From IMG/VR virus record IMGVR_UViG_3300009149_007517: a stretch of 10,149 bases of DNA; one strand, 5' to 3'. Shown here in pieces: positions 5,467 to 8,074 of the stretch; position 1 is the first letter of the stretch; each line of letters starts with the position of its first letter. The DNA is from a virus. The position numbers were made by a program, and so were the translations under genes. The notes under the pieces were generated by a model, which did no database searches, was not told the origin of the DNA, and saw only the letters and a program-made list of their open reading frames with translations.

Positions 5467-5802
5467 ATGAAAAAATTAAAAACATTTGAAAATATATTTG
5501 GTTTTGATCTTGGTACTACTGTTGATGATTACAATAAATTAAGAGATAATATAAAAGATTTTATTGTAATGGAAGTTGATAAAGATGTATCTAGTATAGG
5601 TGCTATATCAATAGAACAAATACCTATAGATGATGATGAAACAGAAATAGTTGATATGCTGCATGTTGAAGCATTATATAAAATGGACAACTACGGGCAT
5701 AAATTAGATATGGATACTGTAATGATTGATAATTTAGATAATTTAAAATTATATTTACAAGATCCAAAGATGTATAAGAATTCAAAAAAGTATAATTTAT
5801 AA
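5467..5802 (+). CDS. hypothetical small acidic protein, 111 aa
   Basis: First ORF of a four-gene plus-strand cassette. Its TAA stop overlaps the next ATG (TAATG at 5800-5804). Asp/Glu-rich. Confidence 0.5.
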   Translation: MKKLKTFENIFGFDLGTTVDDYNKLRDNIKDFIVMEVDKDVSSIGAISIEQIPIDDDETEIVDMLHVEALYKMDNYGHKLDMDTVMIDNLDNLKLYLQDPKMYKNSKKYNL

Positions 5803-7109
5803 TGAAATATATTAAACAATTCAATAATTTTACACCAATTAAAATAAATAATGAAAAACCTTTTAAAATAAAAAAAGATATTTTAAAGAGTATTATTTAT
5901 TTGCAGAAAGGTATTCAAAGTGATACTAAAAGATTACAAAAAGAAAAAAATATAGGTAAACGAAATAAATTATCACAAGATCGTAATAAGAAAATGCAAA
6001 AACTTAAGGAATTAAATTTAAAAAGGGCAAAACAAGTACAATACTTAAGAGATAATCCTATTACAGAAAATACTAATAATAAAAAAACACTATTAGAAGT
6101 TTTAGAATCAGAAACATTTAAACCAGATAACATATTAAAATATATTGGATTTGATGAAGATGAATATAAAATTGAAATTGAAAATAACTGGAGAACAGGT
6201 GAAGATGAATCATCATATGATGAAAAATCTCTAACAATGTTAATAAATTCAAACACATTAGAGCATTCAATTGGATCATATGATAATGGAATAATAGAAT
6301 ATTTATTATCATTTGATAAATATAATAACAATGAACATTATGTAGATGATGAAGAATTAAATTATTTATGTGGTTATTTAAATAATGAATTATTAGAAAA
6401 AATAAAAAAACTATCAATAATATTTAAATCTGAAATTGATCCAAATGAGGAAGGTGAAATAAAAGAATTATTTGATAAGTTAGGATTAGAATCTAAATTA
6501 GAAGGTTTTTTGTCAGAAATTCAAATGGAAAAAGAAAGAGAAATTGAAAAAGAAGCACAAGAATTAATAAAATCTTTACCATATTTAATTGAATCAAAAT
6601 TTAATAAAGATTTTAATTTACAACTATATTTTGAATATGATGAAATTATAAAATATATTAAAAAACATAACATTGAAAAAGTAGAAACAATTAAAGAATT
6701 TATTGAAAGTGTATTTGAAAATAGTGATATTTCATATGATTTTGAATATAACATTAGTTCTGAAAATATGAGTGATTATAATGACTTAAAAAATGAAGTA
6801 GAAAATGTCGTAGACGATTTTATTGGTTCACCTGATGATGTTTTTCTATATATGATAAAAGAAGATAAGTTAGATATATTTAAAAAAAATATTGATTTAG
6901 CAATTTTTTCTTATGTTTATGATACTTGGATTGATAGTAATAGAGTAAGAGTAAATTTATTTCAAATTGCAAAAAACGCCAATAAAGATATTTATAAATG
7001 GATGATAACTGATGAATTTGAAAATATAATGAAAAAATTAGGAGGAGAAGATCTAGATGCATATTATGAATTTATGTATGGTGAGAATGTTAGTAAATAT
7101 AACATGTGA
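5802..7109 (+). CDS. hypothetical protein, 435 aa, basic coiled-coil-like N-terminus then acidic body
   Basis: Longest ORF in the region, with start/stop coupling to neighbours. The N-terminus is K/R/Q-rich (KRLQKEKNIGKRNKLSQDRNKKMQKLKELNLKRAKQ). No recognisable catalytic motif. The antisense ORFs overlapping it are S/L/F/I-rich low-complexity artefacts. Confidence 0.6.
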   Translation: MKYIKQFNNFTPIKINNEKPFKIKKDILKSIIYLQKGIQSDTKRLQKEKNIGKRNKLSQDRNKKMQKLKELNLKRAKQVQYLRDNPITENTNNKKTLLEVLESETFKPDNILKYIGFDEDEYKIEIENNWRTGEDESSYDEKSLTMLINSNTLEHSIGSYDNGIIEYLLSFDKYNNNEHYVDDEELNYLCGYLNNELLEKIKKLSIIFKSEIDPNEEGEIKELFDKLGLESKLEGFLSEIQMEKEREIEKEAQELIKSLPYLIESKFNKDFNLQLYFEYDEIIKYIKKHNIEKVETIKEFIESVFENSDISYDFEYNISSENMSDYNDLKNEVENVVDDFIGSPDDVFLYMIKEDKLDIFKKNIDLAIFSYVYDTWIDSNRVRVNLFQIAKNANKDIYKWMITDEFENIMKKLGGEDLDAYYEFMYGENVSKYNM

Positions 7110-7115
7110 TAAGAT

Positions 7116-7511
7116 ATGATAACAATTTTTAAAATATACGAGGAATACACATTTAAATATGAAGATAATAAAGAAACAATATTAAATTCAATAACAACCC
7201 ATATACAAGATATTGTACCTATAAATAAAAATGAAGGATTTTATTATTGTTTATTTGAAGATGGAAATAGTTTTGATGTTGAATATGGTGAACAAATGGA
7301 TTTTAGTGATATAATAATACATTTTTACTTCTTAACTAATACAGAGGAAGATGTATTTGATATACTTGAAGATTTTACAGAAAAAGAAGGATTAGAATAT
7401 TTAGGAGAAAAATATATTGATAATTTTATTGAAATATCATATCAAGTACCAGAAAAAAAAGTTAAAGAATATTACGAAATATATAAAAATACTGAAAAAT
7501 ATAATATATAA
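7116..7511 (+). CDS. hypothetical small acidic protein, 131 aa
   Basis: ORF 6 nt after the previous stop and 2 nt before the next start. Glu/Tyr-rich. No recognised domain. Confidence 0.5.
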   Translation: MITIFKIYEEYTFKYEDNKETILNSITTHIQDIVPINKNEGFYYCLFEDGNSFDVEYGEQMDFSDIIIHFYFLTNTEEDVFDILEDFTEKEGLEYLGEKYIDNFIEISYQVPEKKVKEYYEIYKNTEKYNI

Positions 7512-7513
7512 TT

Positions 7514-8074
7514 ATGGAATATGAAATTGGTGATGAAGCATTAGGTGGTATAATTGGTTATATATTTAAACGTGGAGAAAAAGGATATAATATAAATGAA
7601 CAACATGGTTTTGTTGTTGCAAAAGAAGATCAAGGAATTGCTATTTGGGGGGATAAAATTGATGTTCCTACTAGTTATAGAATGGGTAAAGGGTATGATA
7701 ACACACAAAGTATAATAGCACATTGTACTGGATTAACAACAGCAGCAAATTTATGTGTAAATTATTCTGGTGGTGGATACACTGATTGGTTTTTGCCTAG
7801 TAAATTAGAAGCATTTGAATTTGTTATATTACATTGGGAAGGTTTTTGTAATTTTAATACAGGTAAAACTGAAGATGATTTAATAGGAAAATATTACACT
7901 TCTAGTCAAGTTGGTAAAGATTTTGGTATATCTTATAATGATTATCATTCTGCATTTTCTCAATATATAAATTATGATCCTGAATCTTGGAATTATGGAC
8001 AACCTACATGGCAAAATTTTGGTGGATTAGAAAAAGATACTCCGTTAAATGTTAGAGCAATAAGATATTTCTAA
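7514..8074 (+). CDS. DUF1566 / Lcl C-terminal-domain-like protein ('Fibrobacter succinogenes major paralogous domain' family), 186 aa
   Basis: Matches the family pattern as I recall it: GGIIGYIF...HGFVVAKEDQG...W........G.GYDNTQSIIAHC....AANLCVNYSGGGYTDWFLPSKLEAFEFV. This fits the consensus GG.v....hGL.aa..dq..W....G..NT..I...c..aA..C...GgysDWRLPt..EL. Last gene of the plus-strand cassette. Confidence 0.65.
   Translation: MEYEIGDEALGGIIGYIFKRGEKGYNINEQHGFVVAKEDQGIAIWGDKIDVPTSYRMGKGYDNTQSIIAHCTGLTTAANLCVNYSGGGYTDWFLPSKLEAFEFVILHWEGFCNFNTGKTEDDLIGKYYTSSQVGKDFGISYNDYHSAFSQYINYDPESWNYGQPTWQNFGGLEKDTPLNVRAIRYF

Follow-up and report, generated by a model that had tools for sequence, protein, structure and literature searches.

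Short terminal peptides mark a hypervariable protein repertoire in a huge-phage lineage

Background

Positions 5,467 to 8,074 of a 10,149-nucleotide stretch from the IMG/VR virus record IMGVR_UViG_3300009149_007517 (this whole stretch is referred to below as the window) contain four tightly packed open reading frames (ORFs), designated ORF1 to ORF4, that raise the question of whether they constitute one functional system or are members of something larger. An initial annotation, made from the letters alone, likened them to an accessory host-interaction or defence/anti-defence cassette in which only the last product, a DUF1566-type protein, was recognizable, the other three being devoid of recognizable motifs. 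The latter claim is contradicted by comparison with related genomes: ORF1, ORF2 and ORF3 each begin and end with short conserved peptides, hereafter the N-tag and the C-tag, that are common to dozens of neighbouring genes. On the basis of sequence comparison, the finding extends beyond the cassette: in a huge-phage lineage, a hypervariable repertoire of proteins is marked by this two-part code of terminal peptides.

Terminal tags on unrelated proteins

The tags were counted in six related loci with 371 ORFs and 44,058 residues. The motif K[YF]N[LIMV] forms the C-terminal end of 76 of the 371 ORFs, compared with seven internal occurrences in the 44,058 residues, and a looser form, [YF]N[LIMVF], ends 82 proteins, which amounts to about 20% of the ORFs and to 7–27 genes per 20 kb. 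The C-tag consists of [ATS] at position −6, any residue at −5, K at −4, [YF] at −3, N at −2 and [LI] at −1, and ends exactly at the carboxyl terminus; asparagine at −2 is present in 82 of 82 proteins and lysine at −4 in 77. The N-tag follows the pattern M1 K2 [YH]3 [IL]4 K5 x [FY]7 E8, with MIT.FK.FE as an alternative form, and the C-tag is also present on 57 of the 61 N-tagged ORFs. All other plus-strand array proteins in the relatives are tagged likewise, the exception being the homologues of ORF4. Tagged genes form several clusters on both strands, and are present also on 12 contigs of IMG/VR that measure up to 243 kb and have a guanine-plus-cytosine (G+C) content of 21–27%. A search of the literature found no description of the tag or of tagged families in huge phages, which is no proof that none exists.

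Between their tags these proteins have little in common. After trimming of the ends, the cores of the 82 tagged proteins fall into 49 BLAST clusters, their lengths range from 50 to 457 residues (aa), and ankyrin repeats, found in four proteins, are the only Pfam match among them. Most of the tagged proteins are acidic, with a median isoelectric point (pI) of 5.2.

In the huge-phage genome LR756500 (locus L014, 26351–31661), which is more distantly related, seven adjacent genes begin with peptides similar to MKYIKEYEEF, and most of them end with NADDFG(F/L)(F/L)DN. The combination of a similar N-terminus with a different C-terminus (NADDFGFFDN) suggests that the N-tag and the C-tag are separate modules.

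A probable shared reader of the tags

The variants of the C-tag are specific to individual genomes and cut across unrelated cores. At locus L016, 26 of 27 tags have phenylalanine at −3, and at L034 all five have phenylalanine at −3 and all five isoleucine at −1, whereas at thirteen other loci no phenylalanine is found at −3. Chi-square tests of heterogeneity give p = 6e-22 for Y/F and p = 1e-5 for L/I, values that are approximate given the small counts. Since the variants are genome-specific and the DNA encoding the tags is not homogenised, the simplest reading is that all tags of a genome co-evolve with one partner, and we consider it probable that they are peptide signals read by such a shared partner.

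What that partner might be is best approached by analogy with the internal proteins of bacteriophage T4. The reading that we favour, with a confidence a little short of even, is that the array is a hypervariable set of cargo or effector proteins provided with a common targeting signal. ORF1, ORF2 and ORF3 are members of a very large protein set in which the cores are unrelated and two short, flexible terminal peptides are common to all; the tags would be an address label that all members share and a single partner reads; the destination would most likely be the virion, namely the capsid interior, so that many diverse cargo or effector proteins would be co-injected; and ORF2, which is kept by every relative, may hold a core role. 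The narrower proposal that the tags are read by the machinery of virion assembly or packaging, which also rests on the analogy, is tentative and rather doubtful.

The C-tag could instead be a recognition motif of the PDZ or Clp type, an aromatic-x-hydrophobic-COOH signal for a protease or adaptor that would serve timed turnover or activation, not packaging. PDZ proteases and Clp adaptors read C-terminal hydrophobic motifs; the C-tag, [YF]-N-[LI]-COOH on a free C-terminus that is disordered in the structure models, is a motif of this kind, and its concerted genome-wide variants imply one reader protein. On the other hand, neither a PDZ nor a Clp gene turned up in the roughly 20 kb visible per genome, and the coupled N-tag would be left unexplained. 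We regard this alternative as unlikely.

Peptide or nucleic-acid signal

A quite unlikely explanation, in our estimate, is that the conserved ends are a signal in DNA or RNA, a unit of about 45 nt made of the codons of one C-tag and of the next N-tag that would have a role in translational coupling, as a promoter (the sequence AAATATAAT contains TATAAT) or as a site of recombination through which cassettes are shuffled, similar to the promoter-early stem-loop (PeSL) elements of T4-type phages. Neighbouring tags indeed abut or overlap (TTATGA, TAATG), TATAAT lies within the KYNL codons, a relic consisting of KYNL and a stop codon is found just 5' of ORF1 where no gene was called, N-tag and C-tag co-occur, and the genome-specific variants could reflect gene conversion. 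The pattern of substitutions, however, argues against such a signal. Synonymous positions within the tags are as variable as the background or more so, with the residues themselves fixed: 22 distinct 18-nt tag sequences exist among the 27 of L016; asparagine codons AAT and AAC are used in the tags in a ratio of 27:13, compared with 11% AAC in gene bodies; leucine is encoded by TTA or CTA, and ATA also occurs among the tag codons; and in the tags of L031 the ratio of TAT to TAC for tyrosine is 15:6 and that of TTA, TTG and CTA for leucine 13:3:3, so that TTG and CTA codons, which do not fit a conserved DNA element, are present. Changes between the tags of ORF2 orthologues are conservative, of the kinds Y/F, L/I/M/V and K/R, and the change from tyrosine to phenylalanine (TAT to TTT) destroys TATAAT yet keeps an aromatic residue. 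The C-tag is always flush with the stop codon, whereas its distance to the following ATG varies between −4 and +16, and the last genes of arrays, which precede terminators or convergent genes, keep the C-tag just as the first genes keep the N-tag.

Because synonymous sites vary, because the variants are genome-specific and because AlphaFold models leave both tags disordered, the tags show themselves to be signals under selection at the peptide level, that is, short linear motifs and not DNA signals. As a separate observation, the codon of the invariant asparagine (−2) is AAC in 33–52% of the tags at all loci, compared with 11% in gene bodies.

An ordinary paralogous family, descended from one ancestor and conserving its termini as structural parts of a common fold, would account for the clear paralogues that exist in some subfamilies (a 14-member cluster and the subfamily of ORF3). 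It is hard to reconcile with 49 unrelated core clusters, whose members range in size from 50 to 457 aa and include ankyrin repeats as well as the multi-domain ORF2, or with tags that are disordered and not packed into a fold, and it appears to us improbable.

The array and its turnover

Nine loci from related metagenomic genomes were compared, with about 20 kb visible per genome. All share a common frame: an MVP-like gene (MVP, major vault protein; 77–80% identity) is followed by a pair of small genes on the minus strand and by the divergent array on the plus strand, and then by a VWA-domain gene (74–77%) and a zinc-ribbon gene (51–55%), both on the minus strand. Within this frame the number and identity of the small ORFs between the MVP-like and VWA genes differ in every related genome. 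ORF2 is the only constant gene of the array, present at 9 of 9 related loci with 40–60% identity. ORF4 is found at only four of the loci, in the window and at L008, L010 and L013, separated from ORF2 by one to five different small genes, and is absent from all four loci that were fetched through homologues of ORF2 (L016, L017, L034 and L035). The closest long relative, L034, retains ORF1 (39%), ORF2 (51%) and ORF3 (42%).

A relic of a tagged gene lies between the promoter-like motif and ORF1 (Table 1) and shows that gene turnover takes place inside the array. Together the comparisons show an array that, by the measure of sequence identity, evolves faster than its flanks, with tagged genes gained and lost quickly. 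The region as annotated was expected to be accessory, and by gene content it is indeed accessory and hypervariable; the co-conservation of its four genes that the same annotation implied was not found, ORF4 being patchy and ORF1 almost lineage-specific. Because ORF4 and ORF1 are not co-conserved with ORF2, the four genes are not, judging from their distribution, a functional unit or a co-conserved system; lack of co-conservation was the very outcome that the initial annotation had named as refuting its reading. The acidity of the small proteins, which had been taken as a possible sign of DNA mimics or immunity proteins, is real (pI 4.5 for ORF1 and 4.2 for ORF3) but is a property of the tagged family as a whole, and nothing found here speaks for either role. 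A self-contained four-gene host-interaction or anti-defence operon, composed of a DUF1566 protein with acidic DNA-mimic or immunity-like proteins, would suit genes that are co-oriented, tightly packed, delimited by a promoter-like motif on one side and a hairpin on the other, in part strongly acidic and placed in a hypervariable region, but is very improbable in view of the four ORF2-bearing loci without ORF4 (L034 having ORF1 and ORF3 as well), of the genes that intervene between ORF2 and ORF4, of the general acidity and of the low-confidence ORF3 model, which has no structural similarity to DNA mimics.

None of the three tagged proteins has a Pfam or PHROG match. Homologues of ORF1 were found only at L034 (9669–10001, 39% identity) and in protein P0064, which was the one true homologue detected in an exhaustive phmmer search among 1.84 billion representative proteins; strong-looking matches to a 3579-aa adhesin and to a TPR protein were rejected as repeat or low-complexity artefacts. 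By these searches ORF1 is almost lineage-specific and nearly unique. ORF3 has homologues at L034, L035, L008 (two copies) and L010, in addition to P0061, and on this evidence is a member of a small paralogous tagged subfamily. Its AlphaFold2 model, built from only two usable sequences, has a mean predicted local distance difference test score (pLDDT) of 63 with both tags disordered, and a structure search with this low-confidence model gave no match better than E 0.04 or a template modelling (TM) score of 0.37.

ORF2 has a more elaborate layout, in which the N-tag is followed by a conserved disordered motif (P12 I13 N16 K19 P20 F21 K22), a predicted basic helical hairpin (residues 27–84), an acidic alpha/beta body and the C-tag. 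The change of charge along the chain is pronounced, with a pI of 10.4 for residues 1–95 and of 4.3 for residues 96–435, in keeping with the basic, coiled-coil-type N-terminus that had been annotated for it. The AlphaFold model (pLDDT 86) shows both tags as unstructured ends of low confidence. No match to ORF2 was obtained with tblastn in 50,697 GenBank phages, and a scan of IMG/VR found nothing.

The DUF1566/Lcl_C protein

ORF4 itself has no Pfam match at E <= 0.1 and falls below the threshold of PF07603 also when the members of its family are scanned, a single-sequence phmmer search of the PDB returned nothing, and tblastn found no match in GenBank phages. Its relatives are more informative. 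A database of 5.8 billion sequences yielded 24 homologues, the distant ones among which (E 1.1e-12 to 7e-7) carry PF07603, and 14 of the 24 aligned relatives match Lcl_C with a best E-value of 2.3e-14. The family profile finds the structure 8Q4E, Lcl's C-terminal domain, in the PDB at E 3.4e-16, and for the phage subfamily by itself the top match is still 8Q4E, at E 0.006. The invariant columns of the alignment (A2) are Y89, D91, W92, L94, P95, S130, R181, A182, R184 and F186, and the core motifs of Lcl_C are all represented, namely D-W-x-L-P, the Y-W/Y-S/T-S segment and the C-terminal V-R-A-I/V-R-x-F, with the segments GGYTDWFLPS and VRAIRYF invariant. The assignment to DUF1566, made initially from the letters, thus holds through profiles and homologues, and we regard the identification of ORF4 as a DUF1566/Lcl_C protein as solid even though no direct Pfam match exists. 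8Q4E represents the C-terminal domain of the Legionella protein Lcl, a trimer of the C-type-lectin-like kind with sulphated glycans as ligands (PMC11162425), and by homology ORF4 is a lectin-like binding protein.

ORF4 resembles Lcl_C and 8Q4E in the family profile match and in sharing GGYTDWFLPS, Y(Y/W)(T/S)S and, at the C-terminus, VRAIRYF. It differs from Lcl in being a stand-alone domain of 186 aa without a collagen stalk, a signal peptide or a lipobox, and in an insertion of about 20 residues (W..P.W) that precedes the last strand. A scan of IMG/VR with ORF4 found only distant DUF1566 proteins, on contigs of other G+C content. From its distribution, ORF4 is an optional gene that closes the array in some genomes and is not needed by ORF1, ORF2 and ORF3.

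Two special roles for ORF4 were considered and set aside. DUF1566 is a common target domain of diversity-generating retroelements (DGRs); such an element was rejected here, as the 10-kb window has no template-like repeat overlapping ORF4 beyond chance-level AT-rich matches and no reverse transcriptase domain among its ORFs. A role of ORF4 as the receptor of the tags was also considered: in several tagged genomes it was not seen near ORF2, though it could lie elsewhere there.

Organization of the cassette and its surroundings

The positions of the features discussed here are collected in Table 1.

Table 1. Positions of genes and other features in the window
Feature	Coordinates	Strand	Remarks
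ORF1, 111 aa	5467-5802	+	pI 4.5; N-tag MKKLKTFE 5467-5490; C-tag KYNL 5788-5799
ORF2, 435 aa	5802-7109	+	N-tag MKYIKQFN 5802-5825; C-tag KYNM 7095-7106; single-copy conserved tagged member
ORF3, 131 aa	7116-7511	+	pI 4.2; N-tag MITIFKIYE 7116-7142; C-tag KYNI 7497-7508
ORF4, 186 aa	7514-8074	+	untagged; DUF1566/Lcl_C-type (C-type-lectin-like); phage-specific insertion before C-terminal VRAIRYF
Promoter-like motif TTATATATAGATAAAAT	5357-5373	+	conserved; in divergent intergenic region, directed into cassette
Tagged-gene relic	5414-5464	+	16 codons; 3' end ITLEEYQWDAIIKYNL and stop codon (..AIIKYNL-stop); no start codon; seen in frame-2 translation of 5367-5466
Palindromic hairpin AAAAAGGGAAAAATTAATTTTTCCCTTTTT	8073-8102	.	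perfect 13-bp stem; A run and T run on flanks
MVP-like gene, 805 aa	2042-4459	-	MVP_shoulder E 1.7e-27, Vault_3, Band_7
VWA-domain gene, 202 aa	8110-8718	-	PHROG 7371, E 2.6e-44; homologues in many actinophages
Zinc-ribbon gene, 330 aa	8735-9727	-	short collagen-like Gly-X-Y stretch; C-terminal zinc ribbon
SIS-domain gene (GmhA-like sugar isomerase)	21-608	-	SIS_2 E 5e-21; PHROG 14703; kept in relatives
Second-motif genes	4542-4928, 4925-5329, 605-925, 925-1443	-	homologues in L008, L010, L013

All four ORFs of the cassette were confirmed, on the plus strand and packed as first described: ORF1 and ORF2 overlap in TAATG (...TTA TAATG), 6 nt separate ORF2 from ORF3 (TGA-TAAGAT-ATG) and 2 nt ORF3 from ORF4 (TAA-TT-ATG). 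G+C content is 25% for the whole window and about 19–29% across the cassette. The bounded anatomy of a transcription unit was likewise recovered, with a promoter-like motif on the 5' side and the 13-bp hairpin on the 3' side. The divergent intergenic region 5' of the cassette is 137 nt long (5330–5466) and contains TTATATATAG at 5357–5366, its sole occurrence in the window, followed by ATAAAAT up to 5373. The motif is found also at the syntenic site in L008, L010, L013 and L017, and we infer that it is a promoter. A general scan for sigma-70 promoters was uninformative at 22% G+C (41 sites, compared with 32 expected).

The hairpin lies between ORF4 and the convergent VWA gene, has a folding energy of −14.6 kcal/mol (z = −3.0; none of 200 shuffled sequences was equally good) and is probably a bidirectional intrinsic terminator. 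It escaped a generic scan for terminators, probably since its T-run forms part of the stem. Scans for tRNA genes and Rfam families were negative. In L008 (~6562–6576), L010 (6995–7004) and L013 (~8343–8357) a further copy of the promoter-like motif, (T)ATATATA(G), lies only 4–5 nt 5' of the ATG of the ORF2 homologue, whose mRNAs would be leaderless there if the motif is a −10-like element. The window has no such copy next to ORF2, which overlaps ORF1 instead.

The most conserved gene of the neighbourhood is the MVP-like gene, which encodes a homologue of the eukaryotic major vault protein and is split into two ORFs in L013. Among GenBank phages its 805-aa product matches only LR756500 (462 kb) and LR756501/LR756503 (735 kb), with 50–52% identity. 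These are huge phages described by Al-Shayeb et al. in 2020 (PMC7162821), in a text that does not mention vaults; its largest genomes are assigned to the Mahaphage clade, and for those exceeding 634 kb replication in Bacteroidetes is predicted (PMC7162821). By these matches, the source of the window is a huge, low-G+C phage related to the Mahaphage genomes LR756500 and LR756501, for which Bacteroidetes hosts are predicted. An identical ORF2 is encoded on a metagenome contig of 32 kb in ENA and on one JGI contig, and the contigs that carry homologues of ORF2 and ORF4 reach 711 kb and 531 kb. A search of 185,579 GTDB genomes found neither the junction DNA nor ORF2, and a prophage or a cellular gene family was therefore rejected as the source.

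Several further genes of this neighbourhood deserve mention. The VWA gene and the zinc-ribbon gene form a conserved pair that is convergent to the cassette. On the window's own contig (L032, 18153–20229) a gene for a protein of >1000 aa combines CarboxypepD_reg with a TonB-dependent-receptor beta-barrel, is SusC-like and adjoins a gene for a GT4 glycosyltransferase; such a gene is unusual in a phage and is compatible with a Bacteroidota host, or else indicates a chimeric contig. A protein with a Peptidase_C39 domain is encoded beside the arrays of L017 (19971–20462), and cREC_REC receiver-like proteins are encoded at L017 (8309–8752) and L035 (4666–5031). As an enzyme that processes N-terminal leaders the C39 peptidase is a possible candidate, but a Gly-Gly site is lacking in the N-tag. 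There is, finally, a second class of terminal motif, carried by small minus-strand proteins that end in R-K-[ED]-K-L-x-x-[IL] followed by 0–6 residues, several of which begin with MKIRNGFVSNSSSSSFV, which suggests that these phages carry more than one tag system.

Possible function and comparison with known systems

Huge phages contain hundreds of genes to which no function can be attached, and in the regions seen here about one-fifth of the ORFs bear the same two-part peptide label. ORFan cassettes of this kind are to be read as interchangeable members of a tagged repertoire and not as small multi-protein systems. Should the label direct proteins to the virion or to some other compartment, a functional class of dark-matter proteins becomes selectable from sequence alone, the covariation of Y/F and L/I across genomes offers a handle on the common receptor, and the tags would be natural means of loading foreign proteins into huge-phage particles.

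The closest parallel to the favoured reading, that of targeted cargo or effector proteins, is found in the internal proteins of T4, a diverse and polymorphic counter-defence set whose members share only a capsid targeting sequence (CTS) of 10 residues, which brings them to the scaffolding core and is removed afterwards (PMC3012670). IPI, IPII, IPIII and the proteins of the internal protein (IP) loci resemble the tagged family in being unrelated, fast-evolving and lineage-variable proteins with a common short N-terminal leader, and both sets are encoded in hypervariable loci and thought to serve host takeover or counter-defence (PMC3012670). In the CTS, residues 4 and 7 determine targeting and residues 8 and 10 processing (PMC9026906); the N-tag likewise has its conserved hydrophobic and aromatic residues at positions 4 ([IL]) and 7 ([FY]), with E8 next to the latter.

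Several points nevertheless weigh against the favoured reading. T4 has no counterpart of the C-tag, which is here an obligatory tetrapeptide, and its protease site, L/I-x-E, is not reproduced, the corresponding sequence being [IL]-K-x-[FY]-E. Internal proteins of T4 are basic, whereas the tagged proteins are mostly acidic. To our knowledge, virion cargo comprising some 20% of the ORFs would be unprecedented and far beyond known cargo sets, which in T4 number a handful. In the part of each genome that was visible, no candidate receptor was identified. The genome-specific variants, moreover, could have arisen by gene conversion, although the synonymous diversity speaks against recent homogenisation. 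As to processing, E8 is present in 54 of 61 N-tags, preceded by x6-[FY]7 and with I or L at position 4, and could suit a different Glu-specific protease, for which no gene was seen. No homology of ORF1, ORF2 or ORF3 to T4 internal proteins or to the CTS was detected with PHROG or Pfam, or, for ORF2, in the tblastn search of GenBank phages.

A far bolder version of the targeting idea, to which we attach very little probability, would make the two terminal peptides signals for the loading of cargo in a phage protein-sorting system not known before, with a dedicated receptor that co-evolves with them; in the extreme, the adjacent, highly conserved MVP homologue would build a vault-like shell loaded with dozens to hundreds of tagged proteins, a phage-encoded organelle with its own address code.

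Two further systems invite comparison. PeSLs were reportedly described by Arbiol et al. in 2010 as mobile regulatory cassettes in the hyperplastic regions of T4-type phages. They resemble the present loci as arrays of small novel ORFs that are bounded by a repeated conserved sequence and turn over fast between related genomes. The repeated element here, in contrast, is coding and conserved as a peptide with variable synonymous sites, and no promoter and stem-loop lie between the genes of the array, whose junctions overlap or measure 2–16 nt. The cargo-loading peptides of encapsulins and the translocation signals of secreted effectors are alike in being short, disordered terminal peptides on unrelated cargo, with variants that seem to co-evolve with one reader; they differ in that the sequences are unrelated and that the tags described here have no linked shell, receptor or secretion system. 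A terminal peptide code on this scale was unexpected and is directly testable, and it would be of a kind already known, that of tag-addressed phage cargo families.

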